64,000 bases of DNA from a bacterium (lineage in GTDB: Bacteria > Patescibacteriota > Minisyncoccia > Phycocordibacterales > Phycocordibacteraceae): contig JBBCGK010000001.1 in assembly GCA_037200965.1 (NCBI GenBank), positions 384,001 through 448,000 on the forward strand, in the 5' to 3' direction. Numbering within the stretch: position 1 is the first letter of the stretch; every line of letters starts with the position of its first letter. The translations under genes were made by a program, and so were the position numbers. This document shows positions 3,425-28,079 of the stretch, piece by piece. The notes under the pieces were generated by a model, which saw only the letters and a program-made list of their open reading frames with translations, was not told where the DNA came from and searched no databases.

Positions 3425-5607
3425 TGGCCCTGGGCCGCCATCGCGTCGATCTGCAGGAGAAGATCCCGGCCCTGGGCCGCGGCCTCGGGATGCGCCGCGA
3501 TGCCTTCCTGGACCGCCTTGCGCGCGCTTGAAAGGTCGCGCGCGTTCACGTATCCGGCCGCGAGGCGGAACCAGGCGTTCGCCGCCCCGTTCTGATCGAT
3601 CACGTTCTGCGCCAGGCTTCGTATAAGGCGCGGCCAGTCCTGAAAACGATAGTACGCGAGAATGAGTTTCTCGTTCGCCACGCTTGTCGTCCCGAATGCG
3701 TCCTGGAGAATGGCATCCGCTGCGACGCTGTCGCCGGTGATGACGCTTCCGACCGCCGCATAGACGGCAAGATCGCTGAAGGAAGGATCGAGCGCATAGG
3801 CTTTCTCATACGCTTCCTTCGCACCGGCCATATCTCCCGCTTCCCAGAGGGTATTTCCTTCTTCTATATATATGCCCTGCTTCCTCGGCGACAGCGCCTC
3901 GGCGGCTTCATCTTGTTTGAGTGCGTTCTGGCTGTCCCCGGCGACCCGATAGGCGAGGGCGTATTCGAGGCGCAGGCGCGGATCAAGCGGCAGACGTTCG
4001 ACGAGCTCTCCCATCTTGGCGATCGCGAAAGAGGCAATCGCGGCTTTATCCTCCTGACCCGTGCTTTCGCTGCTTATGGCGCTCACTGAAAACGACACGA
4101 GCTGTTCGTTTATCTCCTGGGAAGCGAACGCCGGGTGCGTGAGCAAATCCCTGAACGAGGCAAGCTGCCCCGCAGGCCCTTGCGCCGAAGGCGTGATGGC
4201 TTCGATAAGCTGGCTCCCCGCCCGGATACCGGGCACGTTCACGAACCAGAGAACGGCGAGGAGCAGCACCGCGGCCACCGGGAGAACCATGGTCGACGCC
4301 GACTCGTCGGCGACCTCCGGCAGGCGTTCAAGGTACGGAACGGGGCGGGCGCTCTTCCCGTGGATATACGCGATGACTAGAACGAACAGGAGCGAGGATA
4401 TGAGATTGTCGAAGACGAACATCGAATGCACCCCGTACGCAACCAGAAGCGACGACAGGCCGACTTTCTCCGCGATCGTGAATTCGGGACGCCGCAGCAG
4501 GAGCCAGAATGCGGCGATGAAGAGGCTTATATACAGAAGGAACGCCGGAAGACCGCCCGCGACGAGCCAGTCGACGAAGGAATTATGCGCCCGGTCAAAC
4601 CACGCCTCCTGGTCATACAGCGACGGGCGATAGAATTCGCTGAAGACGTAGTTGTAGCCTTCCTGACCCCAGCCGAGCACCGGATGCACGAGGAATCCTT
4701 CGTACGCCATGTGCCAGAGCGCGAAGCGCGTCGAGCCCTGGTCGATCGAAATGGACGCGATGCGCGCAAGCGCGGAATTGTTCGTAACGAACGACGAATC
4801 GCGTACCAAGAAGAATCCGCCGCACAGGACGAGGACTGCGATAACCGCTCCCGCGCCGTACCGCCGAGTTTTCCCGCCCGACAACAGCGCGGCGAGAAGA
4901 CCGGCAACCGCGGCTCCGATGACGACCCCGAGGACCGCCCCGCGCGTCTCGGTCTTAAAGAGGATATAGGTCTCAAAGAGGATAAGCAGCGGGAGCGCAT
5001 ACCGGAGCCACGAACGGCGTTCGATCTCGCCCCGCAGAAGCCAGGCGGCTATGCATATATGGAACAGGAGATATACCGCAAGATACGTGGCGTTCCCGAG
5101 AGATGCGTCCAGACGCCCGCTTCCCTGGTGTATCGCGGCGACGCCCAGAAGCTGCAGGACGCCGTGGAGGCACACGATCACGGAAACCCCGAGCGAGGTA
5201 AGCCAGAGCCGGCGCCACAGATCCTTGGCTGACAGTACCGAGCTCGCTACCACAAAAAGGCCGAGAAGATGGACGAGCGTGATCCATCCCTCCATCCGCT
5301 CGAAGTTGCTCCAGAGCGCCTTTTCGGGGTTTATCGCGAAGCAGTCGGCGAGGAACATCCAAAGCACGAATACGGCGAAGAGCGCGCCAAGCCAGGAGAA
5401 GCGCGGGCGGTATCGCTTGTCGGCAAACGCGAGCACCGCCCATCCGGCGAGCGCGATCTCGACCAGGATACGGAAGGCGAACGCCTTTCCGGTTATGAAC
5501 GGGAAATACAGGCTGTTCGTGACCAAAAGCGGAACAAAGGGCAGAAGGAAGAGCGCCCCGACCGCCGTCCACCACCCTATCTGAGCTGCCGTCCCTTTCA
5601 CATGCAT
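3421..5607 (-). CDS. O-antigen ligase (Wzy_C/WaaL-like) family polytopic membrane protein with C-terminal TPR repeats
   Basis: About 12 TM segments plus a Wzy_C-like motif (RAHNSFVDWLVAGGLPAFLLYISLF); the C-terminal ~250 aa is TPR-like repeats. A TATAGT -10 lies 9 nt upstream of the ATG. Confidence 0.55.
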   Translation of the reverse strand: MHVKGTAAQIGWWTAVGALFLLPFVPLLVTNSLYFPFITGKAFAFRILVEIALAGWAVLAFADKRYRPRFSWLGALFAVFVLWMFLADCFAINPEKALWSNFERMEGWITLVHLLGLFVVASSVLSAKDLWRRLWLTSLGVSVIVCLHGVLQLLGVAAIHQGSGRLDASLGNATYLAVYLLFHICIAAWLLRGEIERRSWLRYALPLLILFETYILFKTETRGAVLGVVIGAAVAGLLAALLSGGKTRRYGAGAVIAVLVLCGGFFLVRDSSFVTNNSALARIASISIDQGSTRFALWHMAYEGFLVHPVLGWGQEGYNYVFSEFYRPSLYDQEAWFDRAHNSFVDWLVAGGLPAFLLYISLFIAAFWLLLRRPEFTIAEKVGLSSLLVAYGVHSMFVFDNLISSLLFVLVIAYIHGKSARPVPYLERLPEVADESASTMVLPVAAVLLLAVLWFVNVPGIRAGSQLIEAITPSAQGPAGQLASFRDLLTHPAFASQEINEQLVSFSVSAISSESTGQEDKAAIASFAIAKMGELVERLPLDPRLRLEYALAYRVAGDSQNALKQDEAAEALSPRKQGIYIEEGNTLWEAGDMAGAKEAYEKAYALDPSFSDLAVYAAVGSVITGDSVAADAILQDAFGTTSVANEKLILAYYRFQDWPRLIRSLAQNVIDQNGAANAWFRLAAGYVNARDLSSARKAVQEGIAAHPEAAAQGRDLLLQIDAMAAQGQ

Positions 5608-15546: not shown

Positions 15547-18500
15547 TTATCTGTTATTTTTAACCTTATTTTTTGTCTCGGTCGTTGTTGGCTTCGTTGT
15601 AGCTGGTGTTGTCGGAGCAGGCGCGGTTTGAATCATACTTCCAGGAATGATTGGGACATGGACTGTATAGGTTTGCGATACTGCTGCTCCAACGCCAATT
15701 TGCAGGTTATGACTGCTTGAAACATCTTGTTTTGGACCTGTAGCATTAGTTCCATCCTTTACGTTAACAGTTGCTGATTTCGAGTATTTATACCCCACCC
15801 CTACTGCGCCGCCCACACTTTGTTCAACCTGCACCTCAGCGTTTTTTGGCATAGAACCTGATGAGAACCCTCCACCTATCTTTGCTTCCGCTCCAAGCGA
15901 AGGTCCTCCGCCGGCAACTGCGTTAACTCCTTGGTCACTTGCTTCAAAACCTATCTGCACATTGAAGAATCCATATGTTAGACCTCCATTGATATAAACA
16001 TACCAATTACCAGACGGATCCTTATTAATTATTGGATTATTTCGGACATAACTATAGCTATTCAAAGTTTGAGGATCCATCAGAATCTGATTCAATTCTT
16101 GCTGTGTTAGTTCCTTTACCTTCTTTGCATCTCCCATAGCCAAGAAAGATGGGTCTTGTGATAGAAACTGTCCACGTCCCCCGTCGTAATAACGTGCATT
16201 TAGATACGACAAATCAGACTCGTCATCATGGAACTGCCCGATGAAAGTCCGCCCGAGATCGACGGCTCCCGCATCGACCCTCTCGCTCCCGTACGGATAG
16301 TAGTCGAGGGTCTTCGCAAGCTGGCCCGCATCGTCCGAGACGACGTTCGTCGAGCCCAGGTGGTCGGGATGCATATAGCTCGTGGTGGTGGCGGAGCCGT
16401 TTCCTTCGATCGCGGCGACAAGCCCGTCTCCCGCCCAGATATACGCCGTAGTGGTCGCGCCTTGTAGTTCGAAGTATTTATTCGGGTACAGAGTGGCGAT
16501 GCCGCCAGAAACCTTCGCGGCCCTGTTGCCGACATGGTCATAGGCATAGGTGGTGGTCGCGGACCCATCACTTGAAGCGGCGAGGCGGTTGCGGTAATCC
16601 CAGGCGAACGAATCGGGACCGTGGGCGACGACGTTCCCGTCGTTGTCGTAGGAGAGGGTCGTGGACGCGACGGAGGTCGGCGCATGGGGATTCGCGTAGC
16701 CGGTCCCGGCATAGGCATAGGAGCCCTGGCCGGACTTGCCCGTAAGGTTGCCGATGGCGCTGTAGCCGTAGGTCTCGCGATACGGCAGAGATGCGGCGGC
16801 GGTCGTCGAGGCGACCGTCAGGCGGTCGAGATCGTCATAGGCGAACACCGCGCTTTTCGCCGCCTGCGTGTCGGAATAGTCATCGATGCCGGTAACATTC
16901 CCCACGGCGTCATAGGTGAAATAGATGTCCTGGATCGTCGTACCCGACGGCGGCGTTCCGATCACGTAGCTTGCGGCGGCGCTCCAGTCGCTGTCCACGT
17001 CGTGGTCGTCCCATACCCGCATCCGCCAGTAGTACGGGATGCCAGCCGCAAGCGCGTCCCCCGCATAGGTAATGTCCTCCGTGCGCGTGCCGGGGGCGGT
17101 GGAGCTCGCAAACGGCGCCTTCGCGCTGTCCCAAACCGGAGCGCTCCAAGCGCCCGTCGAGGTCGCCACCTGTATCTGGAAATACCGCGCGGAATCGCCG
17201 GAGTCCGGATCGGCATACACCGCGGAGAACTCGGGGAAATAATCCGTGATCCCGGCCGGGTTCGTAAGCCCTTCGGTCAGGAGCGAGGCGGGCGCGCCCG
17301 GCGGAAAGGACACGGGAATCTCGAAGCTCGCCACGGAACTCCACTCGCTTTGCGTATCGGCATCCCAAAGCTTGATCCGCCAATAATACGGCGTGGACGA
17401 GGCGAGGGCCGGTCCCGCGTATGAGATGTCCGGTATGCGCATGCCGGACGGCGTCGAGCTTGCAAGGGCCGTCATGCCAGTGTCCCAATAGACGCTTGAG
17501 AACGCGCTTGAGGCGGCGAGCTGGATCCGGTATGCGAGGGCCAGATCGCCCGCGTCCGCGTCCGTAAAGAGGGCCGAAAACTCCGGCGTAAGGTCGGTGA
17601 CGTGCACGGGATCCGTCTGCCCTTCGGTAAGAAGGGCCGTCGGCCCGGCAGGAGCCGTGTCGTAGACAACGACGAGCTTCGGATCGTGGCCCGTACCCGT
17701 ATCGTCCGCCGAAGCGAAATTCGCGACGAGTTCGGTCGCGTCGGTGGGAGCGATATTGTTGAAGTCGTTATACGTCCGGACGGAAAGCTTCGTGACGCCG
17801 GTCCTCGAAATGGAAGCCAGCCCGTTCGCGTTAAGCGCGATCGGTTCGTACGTGTTGCCGGCATACGTTCCGTCGCTTACGCCATAGGACGTGCTGCCGA
17901 TCATGTCGAAGTCCTGGCTTACGAGGCTCGCAGCGGACGAAGGCGAAGAAGAAGCGACATAGAGCCGTTTCTCGGAGCCGCCCGCCGTGACGCCGGTCAT
18001 GTAAAGGCTGAGGGTCGCGTCGATGACCGGAACGCTGTCGGGAAGCGAGGACGTGTCGAAAAGAAGGAACCCGCGCCTGATGCCGTAGTCAAGCGCCCCG
18101 GAAGCGACCCCGAGCTCGTCGCTCACGATGATCTCAGCAGCGTCGGAATTGGCGTTGATACCGTTCGTCGCGTTATGAACCGAGTTCCAGTTCGAGCTGT
18201 GATCCTTATACACGTATCCGTCGACCGACGACGTCTCGGGGTCAGGGTCGGGATAGAACGTACCTGTGTCCGCGCGCGCTCTTTTGGGGAACAGGAAGCC
18301 GACGATCGCTTCAAGGATGCCGGGGCTCCCGCCCTGCGCCCGTTTCTGGGCTTCATAGGAGTCCGCGGTGGTGATGCCGTAATCGGCGACCCACCACCCG
18401 CCTTTTTCGTCTTCGTAATACTGGGGATCGCCGGAAACGATTTCGGCGACGAACGTGTTCGGCTTGTCGGTCGCGAAAACGCGCGCGTGCTTGGTTCGCT

Positions 18501-21500
18501 GGCTTTTAATCTCTCCTTTCACCGCCACGCCCGCTGCCTTTGCCCGCGCCCGGGTCTCCTCGCTTGCCGGAAGATCGTCCACGTTCTCGTCCGTCCGGTA
18601 GGCATAGCGGACGATGCCGTCCGAAATTTCCCTGGTGCCAAGATGCCGGTCAACCGGCGCGCGCAACCGGAGCTCCGGCGCGTCGAATGGAAGCGCCTTC
18701 AGGGAAGCGTACGAGTCCCCGTCCGGTGCCGCTCTCTCATCCGTCGTGGTCGAGGCCGTTTCGCCAACTGCCGCTTCCGGAACGAGCGATTCCCCGAGAG
18801 GCTGCGTAGTCGAGGCCGCACGGGACTCCGTTTCCGGAACCTCCTCCGTCGTAGCGGCTCCTTCTTCCGGCGAGATCGCATCATGCCCGTCGAGATCGGA
18901 AGGAACGATCGGCTCGACGGACGCTTCTTCGCCAGCCTCTTCCTGGCCCATACCCAAAAACGCGAGCAGATACGGACTGTTCGACGCAAGCGCGAGACGG
19001 CCGTTTCGTATGCCAAGCAATTTCCCGAAAGCGCCCGCCTGCTCCGAGTCTTCGCCATCTCCATCCGTGCGGAGAGAATCTCCCGCCTGGGGAAGGACCG
19101 TGCGGATGTTCGTGAGCCGATAGAGCTGGTCCGCCGCGTAGGTGTAGGAACTCTCGGTTCCGTTCCCCAGCGCCGCATACTTGACCTTCCCGGTCGGCGC
19201 ATAATCGAAGTCGCTCACGACATCGGCAAAAGTCCCCGCTTCTCCCTGCCGCTGTGCGATCCTCTCGAGCTGCCCGGCGCTGTTGTATGTGTACCGGGCC
19301 TGTATCCCGTTCGGATATCCGAGCGTCGCAAGGTTCCCGAGCCGGTCGTACCCGTACCGCGTTATCGCGGATACGCCGCCGATAGTGTCGGTTTCCGTCT
19401 CCATCCGCCCGAGCGGATCGTATGCGAAAGCCGCCGTCGTTTCGGTCGTCGATGCCGTGCAGAGAAGTCCCTTTCCTTCCGTACAGGCGTCATAGGTATA
19501 GGCGACCTCGATACTTGGGCTCCCGGCGAAATCTTCGGCGAGGGGCCGGTTGAGATCGTCATAGGTGAATACCGTCGTCTGCCCCTTCGGATCGGTCGAG
19601 GATGCCAGATTCCCGGAAGCATCGTAGTTGTATGACCAGATGCCGTAGGTCGCGTCCGCGCCCGCATGGAGGTCTGTCGCGCTCAGGCGGCGGCCGAGGC
19701 CGTCATAAGCAAAGTCGCGGATATTCCCCTGCGCGTCCGTTATCTTCGTCAGGTTCTTATTGCCGTCGTACTCATACGCGGTCGTCTGCGAGCTCCCGCC
19801 GACATGCTCGACAACTGACGCCAAATTCCCGTAAGCATCCTTGACGAGATCCTTCGCGCGCCCGAGCGCGTCGGTGACGGTCGTTTTCCAGTCGTCATAG
19901 GCGTATTCCGTCTCCCCGACGGCGTTCTCGACCGAACTCACGCGCTTCAGCGGATCGTACGCATAGCGCGTGCGAAGCGGGAGGGCGGGCGGCGAGCTGG
20001 TGCCGGTGAAACCGGTCCCGGAGGCGAAGTAGGGCTGGGATTCGCTTACGAGAAGCCCGCGTCCGTCGTACGCGAACGTGCGTACCGCGTACCGGTTCGA
20101 TCCTTCGGCTTCGGCAAGCTCTTCGACTTTCCTGCCGAAACCGTCGAAGTACGTATAGGAATCGGCCGAAACGGCGTCGTCGAGATAGTCGGTCCGCTTG
20201 GCGCGGCGCGGCATCCCGGTATCGGTATAGGCATACGCGCTTTTCATAACCAGCGCCGAAGGCTCCTCCGTGTCCGGCTGCCACTCTTCGAGCACCCGGT
20301 CGAGCGGATCATACACGGTATGGTACGTCCGGCCGTTCGGATTCGTCGTCTGCCGCGGCTTGCCCGAGGAATAGTCGTAGAGATACGCGGTGCTCTGCCC
20401 GAGCGCATTGGTAGTCGTCGCCGGATACAAGCCATAGGGATCGTACTCGTAGATCGTCTGCTTATCGCGCGGATCCTTTTCGGTGAGTACGAGCCCGCGG
20501 GCGTCGTAGGTTTTTTCGGTATCGATCGTCGTCGAAGCCGCGATCCATGACTCCTGCTTGGTCAGGTTCCCCCTGTTCAGTGAACCGAAAGAAAGCGCGT
20601 CATAGTAGTTTTTCGTCTCCCGCACCGTCGAGCTTGCCTGATCCGTACGCGTCTCTCGCGACAGAAGCGAGAAGGGCGCGGTGGAGCTTGCCGCGTAGGC
20701 ATACGCGGTCGTGAACTTGTCCGTGCCGGTATCGGCAAACGAGCCGTCCGCGCCCGCATTCACCCTTCCCCATTCGACCTTCTGCGTCAGGTTTCCGGCC
20801 CCGTCGTCATACGCGTACGTCTCGGCCTTGTCCGCATGGTCGGAATCCCCGTCGTAGTCGAGCACCGTCATTTGGGTCTTCCTGACGAAGTCCGCCTTCC
20901 CGCCCCGGTTATAAGTTTCCCATTTGTCCACTTCAAGCGAATACAGATGCCCCGCGTCGTCGTACGACTCGCTGCGGTACGCCTTCCCGATCTTCGACTG
21001 GTCGTCGAGATATTCCCCGGTCGAGGTCGCCGAGGCGTCGCCCTGATGGAAGAAGGTTTTCGTAACGTTCCCGGCGGCATCCGTCTTCGTGGTCGTCCCG
21101 AATCCGGCGATGCGCCGGTCGAAGGGGCTGCCAAAATAATACCTGCCGCCCGCATACGCGTAGGAATCGGTCGAAGTCGCCCCGATACCGGCATACCTGC
21201 TTATGCCCTCCGCAGTCTCGAGGTTCACCGGAAGCCCGGGATTGAGCATGGCACCGCCCGCGCCCCGATAGCTTGCGGAAGACTTGTACGACGCGGTAAT
21301 GGCCCCGCCCGCGGGCTCGACGACGCGCGTGAGCAGATCGGCCATGCCTCCGGTGCCGAGATAGACGAAGTTGTAGTTGTGATAATAGCTGCCGCCGATG
21401 GTACCCGAGGTGATGAAATCCACGGGGCCGTTCCCGTCCGCTTCCCCGATGCGCGTTCCGGCATCGAGACCGTTCGCAATGAACGGCGCGGGAAGCGTTC

Positions 21501-23451
21501 GGGCCGGATCGAGCGCCCATCCGGTACCCGTATTGAGGTAGACGGCGTTGCCCGACCATAAGGAATTCGCGCCGTTGAATTCGACCCATGAGTTATAGCC
21601 GATATCGACGAGGCCGTCGTTGTTGAAGTCGGCGAGACGGGTGCTCGTGCCGCCGCCGGGCGGGATTGGCACGGCCCACTCGGTGCTCGTGGCCCACCCC
21701 GACCCGGTGTTGAGATACACCATATCGGTCGGGCCGTACTGGGAATCGGAACCTCCGATAACGTCGTCGAGCCCGTCGTTGTTCACGTCGGCTATGCGCG
21801 CGCCGGTATCCGCCCGGAGCCGCGCGGAGAAAAGCACCGGTATCTGCCACGACGGCGCGTACGTCCAGCCGTGGCCGTTGTTGAGGTACACCTTCTTCGT
21901 ATACGTTACGCTCCCGCCGTTCGGATTGTTCACATACGAGCGGACGATATCGGCGGGGCCGTCGCCGTTCACGTCACTGAACCGGGTGCCGACGTCCTTA
22001 TTATTCTCCACAATCGTCTCCGGATTGGTCCATACGGTACTCGTCGCCCAGCCGCTGCCGGTATTGAGAAACACCGACGAATTACACACGAAATCCGGTA
22101 GCAGATCTCCGTTCACGTCCACTATGCGGGTCCCTTTGTCGCGTATCGATGAACTTCCGTATTCGGTGATGATGCAGGGAGCGTTCCAGAGCGTGTTTTC
22201 AGCCCATCCGGTACCGGTGCCAAGATAGGTATGCTTGGTTATCACGGGGCTGCTGTACTTGGATTCGACAAGGTCGGTGAGCGAATCGCCGTTCACATCG
22301 GCGAGCGTCACTCCGCGATCGCCCTGATCGTTCGTGAATTCGACCGGCACCGTCCAGCCGGGACTGGCCCACGCGGGACTCGATGTCGCATAGGAGAATG
22401 CGGCCGCGGGAAGCGAGATTACCGCCCCGCCGTCGTCCCGGCCCGATTCGGTAACGCCCGCGAGGAGGAGGCGCGAGCCGTTGTCGCCGTGCGTATAGGC
22501 GAAATCGTAGCTCCGAACCCACTCCCCGTTCACCTTCGTCCGTATCTGGTCGATCTTATACCGTGTCCGCACACCAAAGCCGCCGGGAGACGTCGTCGCG
22601 GTCGCGGTCGCCCGAAGGCTCTTCGCGAACTCGACCGAAAAGACTCCGGGCGCTCCGCCGCTCCCGGTATAGCGGATGGATTCGGGATAGATCTGCCCCG
22701 AATCTTTCGCGTAGCCGTACGTGACGGTATTTCCGTTCGCATCCATGGTTTCCTGGAGCATCCACTTGTACACTCTGCCCGAATCTCCCGGGTCATCCTG
22801 CCTGGCGGCGGTCGAGGTGCCGAACCTGTACACGACGCCGTTTTTATCCGTCACCATCCAGATGTTTCCGGCAAGCGCATAGCGCAGATAAGAACCGTCA
22901 TCGCTGCGGGCGAGAAAGACCGAGGAATCCGACGTGGTCGCAAGCTCTCCCGAAAGCGAGGAATAGAAATGCGGCGAGGTCGTGCTATAGAGATTTTGCA
23001 TCCCTTCGACGTTATACCGTTCTATGTACGGTATGGAGATATTCCAGCCGTATCCGAAAGCGCTCGCCTCGTCGCGGTCCTGACTCGAATAGGACAGGGA
23101 AAGATGCGGCTCCATACCGTTTCTTCCGGGCGGAACGGTGATCGCGTAGTCGTACGTAAAAGCACCTGTTGCGGCCGATTGATCGGCGCGGGTACGTTCC
23201 GGGCCGGAATCCCGCAGGTATGGCGGCAACTGATCATCGCCGTCCCCCAAACTGAGAGTCTGCGCTCCCCCGCCCTGAAGAAAGGCATCGCCCTCCGTAT
23301 CCGGCATAGCCGATGAAACATCCTCGGCCGGATCTTCCGACGCCGCCAAAACGGGAGCGCAGAAGAGCGGCGTGAAAGAAAGAATCAGCGATGCTGCCAC
23401 GAACTTGTTGAAGGATATTACCCAGGTCGCCCGTTTCGAGGGCTTTGCCAT
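15547..23451 (-). CDS. giant secreted RHS/YD-repeat polymorphic toxin: SpvB-like N-terminal domain, FG-GAP beta-propeller repeats, YD/RHS shell, RHS core, variable C-terminal toxin domain
   Basis: From N- to C-terminus the protein shows: a signal peptide (MAKPSKRATWVISFNKFVAASLILSFTPLFCAPVLAA); an SpvB/TcB motif (TGAFTYDYAITVPPGRNGMEPHLSLSYSS...GYGWNISIPY); at least 6 FG-GAP-like repeats (DVNGDxxxDxV); dozens of YD repeats (YEYDPYG, YAYDGRGLL, YNYDASGNL...); an RHS core end (ARYYDGGRGQFLSQDP...NSYSYVRNNPIINKDPSGNWY); and a ~150-aa Gly-rich tail. The start is chosen at ATG 23451, giving a good signal peptide; the ORF-track start at 23556 adds 35 aa. Confidence 0.85.
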   Translation of the reverse strand: MAKPSKRATWVISFNKFVAASLILSFTPLFCAPVLAASEDPAEDVSSAMPDTEGDAFLQGGGAQTLSLGDGDDQLPPYLRDSGPERTRADQSAATGAFTYDYAITVPPGRNGMEPHLSLSYSSQDRDEASAFGYGWNISIPYIERYNVEGMQNLYSTTSPHFYSSLSGELATTSDSSVFLARSDDGSYLRYALAGNIWMVTDKNGVVYRFGTSTAARQDDPGDSGRVYKWMLQETMDANGNTVTYGYAKDSGQIYPESIRYTGSGGAPGVFSVEFAKSLRATATATTSPGGFGVRTRYKIDQIRTKVNGEWVRSYDFAYTHGDNGSRLLLAGVTESGRDDGGAVISLPAAAFSYATSSPAWASPGWTVPVEFTNDQGDRGVTLADVNGDSLTDLVESKYSSPVITKHTYLGTGTGWAENTLWNAPCIITEYGSSSIRDKGTRIVDVNGDLLPDFVCNSSVFLNTGSGWATSTVWTNPETIVENNKDVGTRFSDVNGDGPADIVRSYVNNPNGGSVTYTKKVYLNNGHGWTYAPSWQIPVLFSARLRADTGARIADVNNDGLDDVIGGSDSQYGPTDMVYLNTGSGWATSTEWAVPIPPGGGTSTRLADFNNDGLVDIGYNSWVEFNGANSLWSGNAVYLNTGTGWALDPARTLPAPFIANGLDAGTRIGEADGNGPVDFITSGTIGGSYYHNYNFVYLGTGGMADLLTRVVEPAGGAITASYKSSASYRGAGGAMLNPGLPVNLETAEGISRYAGIGATSTDSYAYAGGRYYFGSPFDRRIAGFGTTTKTDAAGNVTKTFFHQGDASATSTGEYLDDQSKIGKAYRSESYDDAGHLYSLEVDKWETYNRGGKADFVRKTQMTVLDYDGDSDHADKAETYAYDDGAGNLTQKVEWGRVNAGADGSFADTGTDKFTTAYAYAASSTAPFSLLSRETRTDQASSTVRETKNYYDALSFGSLNRGNLTKQESWIAASTTIDTEKTYDARGLVLTEKDPRDKQTIYEYDPYGLYPATTTNALGQSTAYLYDYSSGKPRQTTNPNGRTYHTVYDPLDRVLEEWQPDTEEPSALVMKSAYAYTDTGMPRRAKRTDYLDDAVSADSYTYFDGFGRKVEELAEAEGSNRYAVRTFAYDGRGLLVSESQPYFASGTGFTGTSSPPALPLRTRYAYDPLKRVSSVENAVGETEYAYDDWKTTVTDALGRAKDLVKDAYGNLASVVEHVGGSSQTTAYEYDGNKNLTKITDAQGNIRDFAYDGLGRRLSATDLHAGADATYGIWSYNYDASGNLASSTDPKGQTTVFTYDDLNRPLAEDFAGSPSIEVAYTYDACTEGKGLLCTASTTETTAAFAYDPLGRMETETDTIGGVSAITRYGYDRLGNLATLGYPNGIQARYTYNSAGQLERIAQRQGEAGTFADVVSDFDYAPTGKVKYAALGNGTESSYTYAADQLYRLTNIRTVLPQAGDSLRTDGDGEDSEQAGAFGKLLGIRNGRLALASNSPYLLAFLGMGQEEAGEEASVEPIVPSDLDGHDAISPEEGAATTEEVPETESRAASTTQPLGESLVPEAAVGETASTTTDERAAPDGDSYASLKALPFDAPELRLRAPVDRHLGTREISDGIVRYAYRTDENVDDLPASEETRARAKAAGVAVKGEIKSQRTKHARVFATDKPNTFVAEIVSGDPQYYEDEKGGWWVADYGITTADSYEAQKRAQGGSPGILEAIVGFLFPKRARADTGTFYPDPDPETSSVDGYVYKDHSSNWNSVHNATNGINANSDAAEIIVSDELGVASGALDYGIRRGFLLFDTSSLPDSVPVIDATLSLYMTGVTAGGSEKRLYVASSSPSSAASLVSQDFDMIGSTSYGVSDGTYAGNTYEPIALNANGLASISRTGVTKLSVRTYNDFNNIAPTDATELVANFASADDTGTGHDPKLVVVYDTAPAGPTALLTEGQTDPVHVTDLTPEFSALFTDADAGDLALAYRIQLAASSAFSSVYWDTGMTALASSTPSGMRIPDISYAGPALASSTPYYWRIKLWDADTQSEWSSVASFEIPVSFPPGAPASLLTEGLTNPAGITDYFPEFSAVYADPDSGDSARYFQIQVATSTGAWSAPVWDSAKAPFASSTAPGTRTEDITYAGDALAAGIPYYWRMRVWDDHDVDSDWSAAASYVIGTPPSGTTIQDIYFTYDAVGNVTGIDDYSDTQAAKSAVFAYDDLDRLTVASTTAAASLPYRETYGYSAIGNLTGKSGQGSYAYAGTGYANPHAPTSVASTTLSYDNDGNVVAHGPDSFAWDYRNRLAASSDGSATTTYAYDHVGNRAAKVSGGIATLYPNKYFELQGATTTAYIWAGDGLVAAIEGNGSATTTSYMHPDHLGSTNVVSDDAGQLAKTLDYYPYGSERVDAGAVDLGRTFIGQFHDDESDLSYLNARYYDGGRGQFLSQDPSFLAMGDAKKVKELTQQELNQILMDPQTLNSYSYVRNNPIINKDPSGNWYVYINGGLTYGFFNVQIGFEASDQGVNAVAGGGPSLGAEAKIGGGFSSGSMPKNAEVQVEQSVGGAVGVGYKYSKSATVNVKDGTNATGPKQDVSSSHNLQIGVGAAVSQTYTVHVPIIPGSMIQTAPAPTTPATTKPTTTETKNKVKNNR

Positions 23452-23542
23452 TACGGGTATCGTAGCATCCATTATCGAGGGCTTGTGGATATCGGGAGAA
23501 TCGGAAACTTTCGTTTTTATTGACGATACGCAGCGCAACATA

Positions 23543-23557
23543 TATGATATTATCATA
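23543..23557. promoter_or_regulatory. 15-bp perfect palindrome TATGATA-T-TATCATA, putative operator of the RHH antitoxin operon
   Basis: Seen directly; lies 20-34 nt upstream of the antitoxin ATG and overlaps -10-like TACTAT/TATAAG hexamers. Confidence 0.45.
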
Positions 23558-23801: not shown

Positions 23802-24062
23802 ATGCAGGTCGCGTTCGCACCCCAATTCAGGCGGCAATTCAAGAAGCTGCCGAAACCTCTTCAGGAAGAAGCGCTCGAAAAGATCGAGACCTTCGGGGAT
23901 GCCGGGAACCACGCGGCGTTGCGCGTTCATAAGCTTGGCGGGAAGCTTCACGGCCGCCTGAGCTTTTCGGTCAATTATCGGTATCGGATACTGTTTTTAT
24001 GGGAAGTTCCGAATAAATCAGCAATCCTGCTCGCCATCGGCGATCACGCCGTATACGAATAA
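23802..24062 (+). CDS. RelE/ParE-family type II toxin
   Basis: 86 aa; the C-terminus LGGKLHGRLSFSVNYRYRILFLWEVPNKSAILLAIGDHAVYE matches the ParE/RelE fold signature. Confidence 0.65.
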   Translation: MQVAFAPQFRRQFKKLPKPLQEEALEKIETFGDAGNHAALRVHKLGGKLHGRLSFSVNYRYRILFLWEVPNKSAILLAIGDHAVYE

Positions 24063-24066
24063 GCGC

Positions 24067-25182
24067 TTAGGGATCCTTGTCCTTCAGAGCCGCGATGATC
24101 CTTCGCGCGCGCGCAGCCCACGTATGCGAGGCGGCGAGCGAAAGCGCTTTTACGGACTTATCTCGTGCCGCCTGGGAATCGGCAAGCGCGTCCCGTATGC
24201 CAGCCGCAAGAGCTTCGGGATCGTCAGGCGGCACGAGATACGCGCTGTCGCCTGCAAGGACTTCCCGGATCGAGGGAAGATCGGACGCGACGATCGGCGT
24301 ACCGGAAGCGATATACTCGAAGAGCTTCATGGGCGAGGTAAAGCGGGTGGAATCCTCGTCCTTCCCGGAATTCGGCAGGACAAGGATGTCCGCGGCGCGA
24401 AGATAGACCGGAACGCCCTCGTGCGGCACGTGTCCGATTATCCTGACGTTCACCCTGCTTCCCCACTTCCCCCCGAATGCCTCGATATCTTCCGGCGTGC
24501 CGCCGAGAAATATGAAAAGCGCGTCCGGAACGAGGGCGGCGGCCTCGGCAAGCGCGGCGGCGCCCTTCCTCGGATAGAGATGCCCCGCATACAGCACGAT
24601 GCGCTTGTCGCGCGGGAATCCGAGCGCGCCGCGCGCCGCCGCGCGATCCGGTACGCCGTCAAACAAGCGCTCATCGACCGCGTCGGGAGCCACGACGATT
24701 CGCTCCGGGGCGACGCCCGCAGCCGCATACGCCGTTCGCAGCCCTTCCGATATGACGACAGTGCGAAGCGCCCGGCGGGCAACGATTTTCGAGACGAACG
24801 ACGGCCGCGCATGCGCTTCAAAAACGAGTCTCTTCCCGAGAAGCAGGTACTGCGCGAGCACGAGCGCATCGCGCGAATAGATGACGTCGGCGCCGCGAAA
24901 CGCGGGAAGCCAGCGGACTTTCTCGGAAAACCAGAGTGCGGAGACCAAAAACCCGAGCGGACCGGACCGGACGAAGTCCGGCGCTTCCAGGGTCGCAACC
25001 TTGAAGGAAGGACGAATGCCGTAGTACGCGAACGGGTCGGCGGCGAGATGATTGATGCGCAAAGGGATGACGAGCTCAAGGTCGACGCCCGCTTCCGCAA
25101 GCGCTTCGCACGTCTTCATGATCTGGAGGCCGTAGGCGCGCTCGGTCGGCAGGCGCGCATTCGATATATAGAGAAGTTTCAT
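24067..25182 (-). CDS. GT4-family (GT-B) glycosyltransferase
   Basis: 371 aa with the C-terminal GT4 signature (PNSGKDEDSTRFTSPMKLFEYIASGTPIVASD). Confidence 0.8.
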   Translation of the reverse strand: MKLLYISNARLPTERAYGLQIMKTCEALAEAGVDLELVIPLRINHLAADPFAYYGIRPSFKVATLEAPDFVRSGPLGFLVSALWFSEKVRWLPAFRGADVIYSRDALVLAQYLLLGKRLVFEAHARPSFVSKIVARRALRTVVISEGLRTAYAAAGVAPERIVVAPDAVDERLFDGVPDRAAARGALGFPRDKRIVLYAGHLYPRKGAAALAEAAALVPDALFIFLGGTPEDIEAFGGKWGSRVNVRIIGHVPHEGVPVYLRAADILVLPNSGKDEDSTRFTSPMKLFEYIASGTPIVASDLPSIREVLAGDSAYLVPPDDPEALAAGIRDALADSQAARDKSVKALSLAASHTWAARARRIIAALKDKDP

Positions 25183-26237
25183 TGCGCAGTGTATGCGGCC
25201 AGTTCCGAACGTATTTCAGGTACTGACAACAGGAGTTCTTTTATCTCGTTTTTGGAGAGTCGTCGCGCATCTAACGAACCATAACCGCTCCCGCCCACAT
25301 CATCACCGCCCTGACTCTGAACGTCGGAGGAAGATCTGGCGGTTTCTTCGTCGGGCGACTCCGGAACAATTCTGTAATATTCGCCGTGATCGACGGCCCG
25401 GCGGAGTTCCTCAGCGGAAATAAGAAATTCGTCACGTCGTTCTCCCAGACGCATGCCGATGTATGCGGCGGGCGTTTTGTACGAAAATAATTCGGCGATC
25501 GCCAACGCGAGATCGGCAAGCGCTATCCCAGGTATTTTGCGAACGTATATTTCGCCCGCTGCACCGCTGGTGAGAGCGAAGAGAATGAGGTCAAGCGCTT
25601 GGTCGAGGGTCATGAAGAAGCGCGTCATCTGCGGATCGGTAATAGTAATAGGTTGGCCTTGCTTGATTCGTTCGATAAAATACGGTACGACGGAACCACG
25701 CGTATAGAGAATATTGCCGAACCGCGCAATACATACGACCGTTTTGGAATTGCGCGCGGATGCTATCGCGACGCGCTCCATTAAGGCTTTGCTCATCCCC
25801 ATCGCACTTGTCGGAGCAGGTGCCTTGTCGGTTGAAAGCACGACAAGCCGTTTTACTGCGTGACCAATCGCGCTTTGAATGACATTGTTACTTCCGAGCA
25901 CGTTAGTTTTTACGAACTCAAGCGGAAACGATTCACCGATCGGCACCTGTTTAAGCGCTGCTGCATGGAATACGTAGTCGACGCCTCGCATCGAAACATC
26001 CACCGCTTGCCGGTCGCGGATATCGCCGACAATAAAAGCAAGCCGTGGGTCACTCACGCGATTGCGCATATCAAATTGTTTTTGCTCGTCCCTGCTGAAG
26101 ATAACCACTTGCTTGGGTGCGAGCGTAAGCAGCGCTTCGGCAACTGCGGAGCCGACCGATCCGGTACCGCCGGTTATGAGTATAGTCGCGTCCTTAATTT
26201 GCTCCGCATAAGAAGAATGCAGGTTCAGATCAGACAT
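25179..26237 (-). CDS. UDP-N-acetylglucosamine 4,6-dehydratase (PseB/FlaA1/CapD family)
   Basis: ILITGGTGSVGS...LSTDKAPAPTSAMGMSKAL (Sx-K). The start is chosen at ATG 26237; the track start at 26309 would read into the IS481 left inverted repeat. ATGA overlap with the downstream GT4. Confidence 0.75.
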   Translation of the reverse strand: MSDLNLHSSYAEQIKDATILITGGTGSVGSAVAEALLTLAPKQVVIFSRDEQKQFDMRNRVSDPRLAFIVGDIRDRQAVDVSMRGVDYVFHAAALKQVPIGESFPLEFVKTNVLGSNNVIQSAIGHAVKRLVVLSTDKAPAPTSAMGMSKALMERVAIASARNSKTVVCIARFGNILYTRGSVVPYFIERIKQGQPITITDPQMTRFFMTLDQALDLILFALTSGAAGEIYVRKIPGIALADLALAIAELFSYKTPAAYIGMRLGERRDEFLISAEELRRAVDHGEYYRIVPESPDEETARSSSDVQSQGGDDVGGSGYGSLDARRLSKNEIKELLLSVPEIRSELAAYTAQ

Positions 26238-26289
26238 GGATTTGCTCAAAGTAGCAATAAATACTAAAGGTTTCAACCGTGCCTTAAGG

Positions 26290-27237
26290 TCGCACTGCAT
26301 ATCGAACACTCCCTAATACTAAGGAGGATATGCGCAAAGAACCCAGGGAAATCATCAGGAAATTGAAGAAGTCGGGAGGAAAGGTGCGCGAAACCGCACG
26401 GACACTCGGCATATCTCCGGGCACGGTGGTGTTCTGGAAGAAGCGAGCCCGGAGCATCCGGAGCCGGTTTGCGCTCTCGACGCGGCAGCTTGTCCGCAAG
26501 TCGACAAGACCGAAGCGTCTTCGCCGCAGGACGCTCTCGGGAGAGCGGGCTGAGGCGCTCTTGCGCCTGCGCGAAGAGAAAGGATACGGGGCGCGCAAGC
26601 TCAAAGTGCTGCTCGGCCTCTCCGAGCACCCGGCGACCATCCATCGCTTCCTCAAAGCGAAAGGTCATATACTGGAAGGCGCGTCATACCGACGGCCGAG
26701 ATATCAGGAGACCACGCATATGTATCTCAAGAACGTGACCGCGCCCGGGAAGCTTCAGATGGATGTGAAGTACGTGACGCCCGAGCTGTCGGGGCTCCCG
26801 CATACCCTGTATCTGTATGCCGTCATTGATATTTGGAGCCGATACAAAGCTGGCGTCATCTTCCCCGAGCTCGTGCAGGACTTCTCCATCGAGGCCCTGC
26901 GGACGGTTTCGCTGCCGTTCGTACCGGATTTCGTGCAGACCGACAACGGCCTTGAGTTCCAGAGCCGCTTCCGCGCCTTCGTGACTGGGGAACTCGGCTG
27001 GAAGCATCATTTCATCCACAAGGCGAACCCGAATGAGAACGCGGTCATCGAGCGGTCATTCCGCACCGACGAGGAGGAGTTCTTCTGGCGCTTCATGAAA
27101 AAGCCCGCTTCAATGGAGGACCTCAATGCCCAGTATCAGGCCTTTCTGCGCGAATACAACCACGAACGGCCGCACCTTGGCATCGAGCTCAAGACGCCGT
27201 ATGCTCGACTGCAAGAGTGTTCGATATGTTAGTGCGA
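26290..27237 (+). mobile_element. IS481-family-like insertion sequence (~948 bp) with 22/23-bp imperfect terminal inverted repeats and a probable 6-bp TTAAGG target-site duplication
   Basis: IRL is TCGCACTGCATATCGAACACTC (26290-26311) and IRR is GAGTGTTCGATATGTTAGTGCGA (27215-27237). Their reverse complements differ only by G vs AA. Flanking TTAAGG lies at 26284-26289 and 27240-27245. Confidence 0.7.
26330..27232 (+). CDS. DDE transposase (N-terminal HTH + rve integrase core), IS481-like
   Basis: 300 aa. The DDE triad context reads LYLYAVIDIWSR ... VQTDNGLEF ... AVIERSFRTDEEE. A canonical SD (AAGGAGG) lies 3-9 nt upstream of the ATG, unlike most host genes. Confidence 0.8.
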   Translation: MRKEPREIIRKLKKSGGKVRETARTLGISPGTVVFWKKRARSIRSRFALSTRQLVRKSTRPKRLRRRTLSGERAEALLRLREEKGYGARKLKVLLGLSEHPATIHRFLKAKGHILEGASYRRPRYQETTHMYLKNVTAPGKLQMDVKYVTPELSGLPHTLYLYAVIDIWSRYKAGVIFPELVQDFSIEALRTVSLPFVPDFVQTDNGLEFQSRFRAFVTGELGWKHHFIHKANPNENAVIERSFRTDEEEFFWRFMKKPASMEDLNAQYQAFLREYNHERPHLGIELKTPYARLQECSIC

Positions 27238-27272
27238 TATTAAGGCGTGAAAGCGTCCGTGGCTATAGCTGA

Positions 27273-28079
27273 TTACAGTTTTATTCCGAAATACGCTGCC
27301 GTAAGGAACCGCAGAATATTCCATTGGTATGCGACGCGCGTCCATTCGACCGCAAGCGGCATGCTCTTGTCGGAGCCATACCGAAAGCGATTGAAAAGAC
27401 TTTTGAGGACGACCTTGGCTATGGTCGATATCTTGGACACCGCGAGGCGCAGGAACATGCCTGTTTCCCGCGTCGCATAGAGTTTCGCGTCCATGAGCGC
27501 ATAGCGCCGGTTCTTCTCAACATCCTGTCCGCTCGCAACGAAATAGTGCCAGTGCCCCGCGAGATATCCGGCCGGATAGCGGGCTTCGTCGTACGTGATG
27601 CGCTCGTGGATAGCCTTGCGGAAGCGCGCGCCGCTCCCGCGGTTGAAAAAGCGCTTTTGCCAGCCCGGATAGTTCGAAGAATGCCCGATGAGGCGGCCGT
27701 CAAGCACGATGCGGGGCGAGATATTGTAGACGAACGTTTCCGCCGGCTGCCGCGAAGCTATGACGCGGACTTCCGATACCAGTTCCGGCGTCGCTTCCTC
27801 GTCCGAATCGATATAGAAAAACCAGTCATGCGTCGCGGCATCGAGGCACTGGTTTCGCACTCCGGCATAGTCGCGGAGCGTATTATCGGGATTCTTGAAC
27901 TCGGAGTTCTGCGCGATGATATGCGCGCCGCAGGTCCCGGCAATGGCGAGCGTCTCGTCCGTGCTGCTTCCGTCGCAGATAATGATCTCGGCGAAGTCCT
28001 TCACGGACTCGAGCGCCCTCGGCAGGTTCTTTGCCGAGTTATAGGTGAGGATAGCGGCCGTGCAGGGAATCTTTTCCAT
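27273..28079 (-). CDS. family 2 glycosyltransferase
   Basis: AAILTYNSAKNLPRALESV...ICDGSSTDET...YIDSDEE (DXD). The start is chosen at ATG 28079, giving MEKIPC. Confidence 0.7.
   Translation of the reverse strand: MEKIPCTAAILTYNSAKNLPRALESVKDFAEIIICDGSSTDETLAIAGTCGAHIIAQNSEFKNPDNTLRDYAGVRNQCLDAATHDWFFYIDSDEEATPELVSEVRVIASRQPAETFVYNISPRIVLDGRLIGHSSNYPGWQKRFFNRGSGARFRKAIHERITYDEARYPAGYLAGHWHYFVASGQDVEKNRRYALMDAKLYATRETGMFLRLAVSKISTIAKVVLKSLFNRFRYGSDKSMPLAVEWTRVAYQWNILRFLTAAYFGIKL

Follow-up and report, generated by a model that had tools for sequence, protein, structure and literature searches.

An intact 962-bp IS481-like insertion sequence inside a glycan operon and the placement of its 6-bp target duplication

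The window, i.e., the whole stretch of 64,000 nt that was analysed, contains a glycan cluster of about 17 genes on the minus strand, mostly overlapping by 4 nt. A GT2 glycosyltransferase gene at 27273..28079 (minus strand) codes for 268 aa as called and has a Pfam Glycos_transf_2 match; its exact product is on record. The gene at 25179..26237 (minus strand) is intact and codes for a PseB/FnlA-like UDP-GlcNAc 4,6-dehydratase of 352 aa (Pfam Polysacc_synt_2, 5e-89). This protein scored 328 bits with FnlA and 278 bits with PseB in NCBIfam, both below the equivalog cutoff, and its NCBI record (P0121) is named polysaccharide biosynthesis protein. The last gene of the operon, coding for a GT4 glycosyltransferase (24067..25182, minus strand), is also intact and overlaps the dehydratase gene by 4 nt. 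The two genes form a coupled pair at the 3' end of the operon, and they also stay together in a relative with 63% identity (L088). Downstream of the operon are a small toxin-antitoxin-like gene pair (23802..24062, plus strand) and a gene for a 2669-aa SpvB/RHS/FG-GAP protein (15547..23556, minus strand).

An insertion sequence lies 28 nt past the GT2 stop codon and 45 nt before the ATG of the PseB-like gene. A sequence-only reading of this DNA had described it as an element lying between the GT2 gene (ends 27273) and the PseB-like gene (starts 26237) and oriented against the operon. Its place was confirmed by coordinates and Pfam matches, and its orientation by the strands, as the transposase is coded on the plus strand, antisense to the cluster. 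The uninterrupted spacer would be about 67 bp, so the dehydratase and GT4 pair is not translationally coupled to GT2 even without the insertion. In other assemblies, the PseB-like gene was called at 373-377 aa (L004:1-1134 and L005:1-1134), with a start inside the left end of the insertion sequence (MQCDLKARLK...). This over-extended start region (26238..26312, minus strand), which is not part of the 352-aa NCBI call, is an annotation artefact created by the insertion.

According to the comparison of copies, the complete insertion sequence spans 26283..27244 (plus strand), is 962 bp long, and reads 5'-CTTAAGG...ATATTAAG-3'. The earlier span of 26284..27245 is within 1 bp of these limits, but only because the supposed duplications had been included in it. 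All 962 bp are 100% identical at the DNA level in the window copy, in L001:2954-3915, in L002:2954-3915, and in the whole contig L003. The copies L001 and L002 were found by exact-protein look-up on contig JBBCBH010010897.1 (GCA_037975565.1, 960 kb), while L003 is a 962-bp Logan contig representing a collapsed repeat from raw-read assemblies. The identity runs from CTTAAGGTCGCACT... to ...AGTGCGATATTAAG and ends exactly at C...G (26283 and 27244) in every copy. The G+C content of the element, 0.577, equals that of the window, 0.58. A UvrD helicase gene with an intein domain match (L002:5267-6903) lies near the L002 copy.

The terminal inverted repeats are real and intact, but their length is 29/30 nt and not 22/23 bp as first reported. 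The left repeat (26283..26311, plus strand) is 29 nt long and consists of the CTTAA tip and a conserved CATATCGAACAC box. The right repeat (27215..27244, plus strand) is 30 nt long, holds the stop codon of the transposase gene (27230-27232), and encodes the C-terminal ...ECSIC of the protein. The repeats are imperfect, as their alignment has one indel and identical bases in 26 of 30 columns; an inner block is perfect (14/14, 26298-26311 and 27215-27228), and an outer block matches at 14 of 16 positions (26281-26296 and 27231-27246). The expectation that the repeats should be conserved in other copies was borne out by the copy comparison, and the CTTA tip and the ACATAT..AACAC box of the left repeat were also found in relatives. 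At each repeat, the CTTAA tip would be the end that is cleaved and joined, and the subterminal CATATCGAACAC box is a putative transposase-binding site.

The transposase gene (26330..27232, plus strand) is a single uninterrupted ORF coding for 300 aa, with an N-terminal HTH (about residues 7-41) and a DDE core (D145, D205, E241) on one polypeptide and no frameshift. Pfam recognized rve_3 (3.4e-12), HTH_Tnp_1, and rve on this ORF. In 21 homologs, D205 and E241 never vary and D145 hardly does, and 35 residues lie between D205 and E241. A profile search of PDB gave no match with the transposase, and among solved structures none is near enough in sequence to confirm the triad. The nearest homologs share a conserved C-terminal QECSIC. 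In one assembly (L007, GCA_015655515.1), 5401 bp of host flank are identical to the window, but there are two SNPs in its 173 bp of insertion sequence, at 5418 and 5434 (window 27229 and 27213), within the last 32 bp of the element. They alter the C-terminus of the transposase (Q to R, Cys to stop) and the right inverted repeat, and could represent a variant copy or read mixing among copies.

A Shine-Dalgarno-like AAGGAGG (26321..26327, plus strand) is located 2 nt before the ATG of the transposase gene. Such a spacing is unusually short for a working Shine-Dalgarno sequence. The motif had been presented as canonical and unlike host genes; it is present, and about 22 of 26 called genes of this organism lack a similar motif, but the 2-nt spacing makes its function doubtful. 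In relatives, AAGGAGGT is found 4-6 nt before the start, or there is no motif. Inspection by eye gave nothing convincing as a transposase promoter in the left inverted repeat or as a junction promoter across the abutted ends. The sole match of the promoter scan, TTGGCA-N17-TATGCT (9/12; 27177..27205, plus strand), is in the right end of the element and reads outward, antisense to GT2; the count is no higher than in shuffled sequences. A -10-like TANNNT was found exactly 6 nt before the start codon in 7 of 70 genes, while 0.5 were expected, when about 70 crude gene calls from the window, L001, and L002 were used (e.g., L001:3919-4776, minus strand, and L002:5267, plus strand). This suggests that leaderless mRNAs may be widespread in this organism.

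The search for transposase homologs gave 1449 sequences at E < 1e-10, the nearest of which is 76% identical; with few exceptions they are about 300 aa long, and the contigs that carry them mostly measure about 1 kb. Their source names are 'integrase core domain', 'InsO family', and once 'IS481 family transposase [Ca. Saccharimonadales]'; 'IS481 family transposase' is the name given by NCBI to a homolog with 58% identity (P0099). A scan with one genome per species recognized 80 loci; they are spread over many lineages of Patescibacteria, and sets of several copies occur in Dehalococcoidia. The same architecture is seen in relatives from other phyla at 44-49% protein identity. The elements of Paceibacterota OZ244939.1 (L031-34, 49% aa identity) are 962 bp long, have ends CTTAATGG...CCATTAAG, and are flanked by four perfect 6-bp duplications, GCGACA, GTATAT, GATGGG, and ACCACC. 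Those of Dojkabacteria (L071-72) are 984 bp long, with ends CTTAATCAG...CTGATTAAG and two perfect duplications, CACCCA and GATGTT. Dehalococcoidia copies (about 48% aa identity, 962 bp, CTTGTT/CTTAAT tips) reach several per genome in a number of genomes, with up to nine loci in one of those scanned; the loci are L039-L069, L076, and L086-87, on chromosomes OZ253588.1, OZ252024.1, OZ244924.1, OZ244824.1, and others. The element is a member of a compact IS481-like clade, whose members are widespread among Patescibacteria/CPR genomes and occur as multiple copies in some Dehalococcoidia. Its occurrence in Patescibacteria and in the unrelated phylum of Dehalococcoidia suggests cross-phylum spread. 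Elements of the clade were also found in MAGs labelled 'Gammaproteobacteria' or 'Pseudomonadales' (L021, L022, L026, L070, L085). These may be mis-binned contigs or mislabelled bins, as the other hosts are nearly all CPR.

The sister copies L001 and L002 are flanked, directly outside the element ends, by perfect 6-bp duplications, TACCTA and CTGATG, respectively. As the copies are identical through their tips and perfect hexamers follow beyond, the element includes TTAAG, and its target duplication is formed by the next 6 bp outwards. At L001, the stop codon of the metallo-beta-lactamase-fold gene upstream shares bases with the TACCTA duplication. When ends of relatives were sought in a relaxed scan, 34 of about 60 scored copies had a perfect 6-bp duplication beside CTT-type tips, four matched at 5/6, and two at 4/6, one of these being probably a spurious end call. 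About ten well-defined copies (e.g., L055, L058, L086, and L024) are without any duplication and are candidates for IS-mediated rearrangements. No target-site consensus or palindrome was recognized among eight perfectly duplicated sites.

At the window copy, the left hexamer is CCGTGC (26277..26282; the same junction is in L004 and L005) and the right hexamer GCGTGA (27245..27250; the same junction is in L006 and L007), so the duplication is imperfect and matches at 4/6. The central CGTG is common, the two mismatches are at the outermost positions, and GC adjoins the element on both flanks. The left junction was reproduced in the Logan assemblies of SRR28211700 and SRR10968228, and by gene layout also in GCA_015689235.1, and the right junction in the Logan assembly of SRR28211700 and in GCA_015655515.1. 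As both junctions recur in independent assemblies, a local assembly error does not explain the imperfect duplication. The predicted uninterrupted target, ...GGTTTCAACCGTGAAAGC... (window 26271..26285 joined to 27245..27253), would have a small palindrome TTTCA-N4-TGAAA centred on the insertion point, but its arms are only 5 bp long, and the L002 site showed nothing similar. Altogether, 26283..27244 very probably represents an intact, autonomous 962-bp IS481-like insertion sequence inside the glycan operon, with a 6-bp target duplication outside CTTAA...TTAAG. Transposition would follow an IS3/IS481-type mechanism, in which a 6-bp staggered cut at integration would give the 6-bp duplication directly outside the tips.

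The mismatched hexamers of the window copy may have several sources. One of them, tentative and of low probability, is that the stagger is constantly 6 bp but 1-2 nt beside each end of the element are donor-derived and not templated by the target, e.g., when a circle-junction spacer is kept as a 5' flap. The target would then be CCGTGA, with 'GC' carried beside both ends, and the empty site ...AACCGTGAAAG... would correspond to this 6-bp target. GC is found beside the element on both flanks, and the other bases fit one target, CCGTGA. The near-perfect duplications of relatives also deviate mostly terminally (L051, L061, and L066 at position 6, L030 at positions 1-2), and for the IS481 element of SBW25, it was demonstrated that bases once taken as duplication move together with the element (PMC11708052). 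However, this proposal is purely inferential and draws on five cases only, GC flanks that could have acted as donor are missing from both known sister copies, and simple point mutation or sequencing consensus effects are alternative sources of such mismatches. Point changes after insertion may also account for the imperfect duplication.

The window copy could also be the one element that remained after two copies in direct orientation recombined homologously, with a deletion. In that case, each flank would derive from a separate insertion site, and GT2 would originally not have adjoined the PseB-like gene. This origin is judged improbable. The window hexamers do differ, while perfect duplications are found in both sisters and in the 34 copies of relatives; recombination between identical insertion sequences is a recognised cause of missing duplications (PMC11708052), and about ten copies of relatives have none. 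In L088, the dehydratase and GT4 pair follows different genes, but this synteny does not decide on the deletion. Against recombination, CGTG is common to both hexamers, and a match of at least 4/6 between unrelated hexamers has p of about 0.04. The mismatches are outermost, as in the other near-perfect duplications of the clade, where 6 of 8 mismatches are terminal (p of about 0.02). In addition, the two flanks belong to a single glycan operon, lie on the same strand, and are separated by a spacer of usual length.

The ISfinder family IS481 has IS481 of Bordetella pertussis as its type element, and its usual termini are TGT...ACA. In IS3 elements, two overlapping ORFs are joined by a programmed -1 frameshift. 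The best NCBIfam match of the transposase is IS481 (NF033577; 2.5e-42, 145 bits), which covers residues 7-293 of 300 and model positions 4-283 of 284. The best annotated tblastn matches, on plasmids, are all named 'IS481 family transposase', with 29-34% identity. Like members of this family, the element is about 1 kb long and has a single-ORF DDE (rve) transposase with an N-terminal HTH, short terminal inverted repeats, and a 6-bp target duplication, perfect in L001, L002, and the 34 copies of relatives and 4/6 in the window copy. In most IS481 elements the duplication is 6 bp long, against 3-5 bp in IS3 (Kojima and Bao, PMC10045372). Unlike IS481, the termini of this element are 5'-CTTAA...TTAAG-3', and those of relatives CTTA(A/T)T, instead of TGT...ACA; ends TGT...ACA and TG..CA are also described for IS481EU elements (PMC10045372). 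Further differences are the score, which is below the curated cutoff of 224 bits, the identity of at most 34% to annotated members, no palindromic CTAG-type target evident at the eight perfectly duplicated sites, and the hosts, which are Patescibacteria and Dehalococcoidia. In the literature, a search for IS481 in Patescibacteria gave no result. The element keeps the IS481-like label, subject to two caveats, its sub-threshold score and its non-TGT ends, and the earlier claim of an IS481-like element with intact transposase and intact ends is confirmed by the ORF, the domains, and the inverted repeats.

It is conceivable, though with a small chance of being correct, that these elements of about 950-990 bp and 300 aa are a distinct uncatalogued subgroup beside IS481, with tips CTTA(A/T)T...A(A/T)TAAG and hosts in Patescibacteria and Dehalococcoidia, in which near-perfect duplications, with their mismatches concentrated at the bases that touch the element as in the window copy, are footprints of donor nucleotides left via a circle-junction intermediate. 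If true, the duplications would be a sequence-only read-out of the transposition pathway. The IS481-family element of SBW25 is similar in having several identical copies in one genome, which were taken as a sign of recent activity, and in the same interpretive trap over duplication and element tip (PMC11708052). It differs in that it targets REP sequences and its movement was seen experimentally (PMC11708052), while the present element is known from sequence alone.

An assignment to IS3, or to another rve-type family, is very unlikely. The catalytic core is of the related rve type with the DD(35)E spacing of IS3 (D205-E241), NCBIfam IS3 is the second match (3.7e-27, 95 bits, also under its curated cutoff), and several homologs are named 'transposase InsO family protein' by JGI. 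However, IS481 scores higher and is the name of all best annotated tblastn matches; furthermore, the single ORF without frameshift, the duplication of 6 bp and not 3-5 bp (PMC10045372), and the ends CTTAA...TTAAG instead of TG...CA are all unlike IS3.

There is next to no chance that the element is 26290..27239 with TTAAGG (26284-89 and 27240-45) as its 6-bp target duplication, as the sequence-only reading proposed from a TTAAGG found in direct orientation to the left and to the right of the window copy: (C)TTAAG borders each of the three copies, whose loci are unrelated, and is part of L003, relatives of different phyla have conserved CTTA(A/T)T tips, the perfect but differing repeats outside (TACCTA, CTGATG) would need chance twice, the 'TA' on the right side between the repeat and the supposed duplication is left unexplained, and the same error is documented for an IS481-family element of P. 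fluorescens SBW25 (PMC11708052). The TTAAGG assignment was refuted by the copy comparison, TTAAG being a conserved element tip that every copy shares with distant relatives outside its phylum. The element is an ordinary intact insertion sequence that was detected correctly, and its target duplication was mis-assigned.

The insertion had also been called recent and probably active. The intact ORF and inverted repeats, the three copies 100% identical over 962 bp, and the two perfect 6-bp duplications point to recent transposition within the genome, and the element is probably still active, as judged from these features. The part of the argument that took an intact duplication as a sign of recency has the wrong bases as its ground, as TTAAGG is the element tip. 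The window site is occupied by the insertion in every available assembly of the population, and so is the L001 site, in both Logan runs too; this fixed occupancy counts against a very recent event. When an empty site was searched for by exact-protein look-ups of the flanking genes, only contigs breaking at, or containing, the insertion sequence were obtained. The nearest PseB-like homolog outside the population is 65% identical and too far for an intergenic comparison. A gapped pattern across the predicted empty site had no match in JGI metagenomes, but the end of the insertion sequence is also absent there, so this null result is uninformative. As no empty or polymorphic site was found, mobility is deduced from copy identity only. 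Each of the three copies lies in a spacer whose two neighbouring host genes run in the same direction, opposite to that of the transposase gene.

No intrinsic terminator was found by the scan on either strand of the insertion sequence. A polar effect on the PseB-like and GT4 genes, via Rho or via collision with transposase transcription, is plausible. The insertion may attenuate read-through into the last two genes, both of which are intact, and need not abolish it. Between the end of the element and the PseB-like start, a promoter-like TTGAAA-N17-TACTTT (26248..26276, minus strand) is present as reported earlier; it is host-derived, 10 nt upstream of the PseB-like ATG, and its -35 follows directly after the left hexamer. 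It has 8/12 consensus positions, however, which is below the scan threshold and indistinguishable from chance.

These results leave the understanding of insertion sequence biology unchanged. Their value is mostly for annotation, as they fix the limits of the element, on which masking and naming of insertion sequences depend. Two minor points deserve mention, the conserved CTTA tips that relatives of different phyla have in common and the mismatches next to the junctions. The cross-phylum clade with such tips could serve catalogues of insertion sequences. For the organism, the surface-glycan operon of a streamlined, probably Patescibacteria genome has a fixed insertion sequence between its main body and its last two genes.
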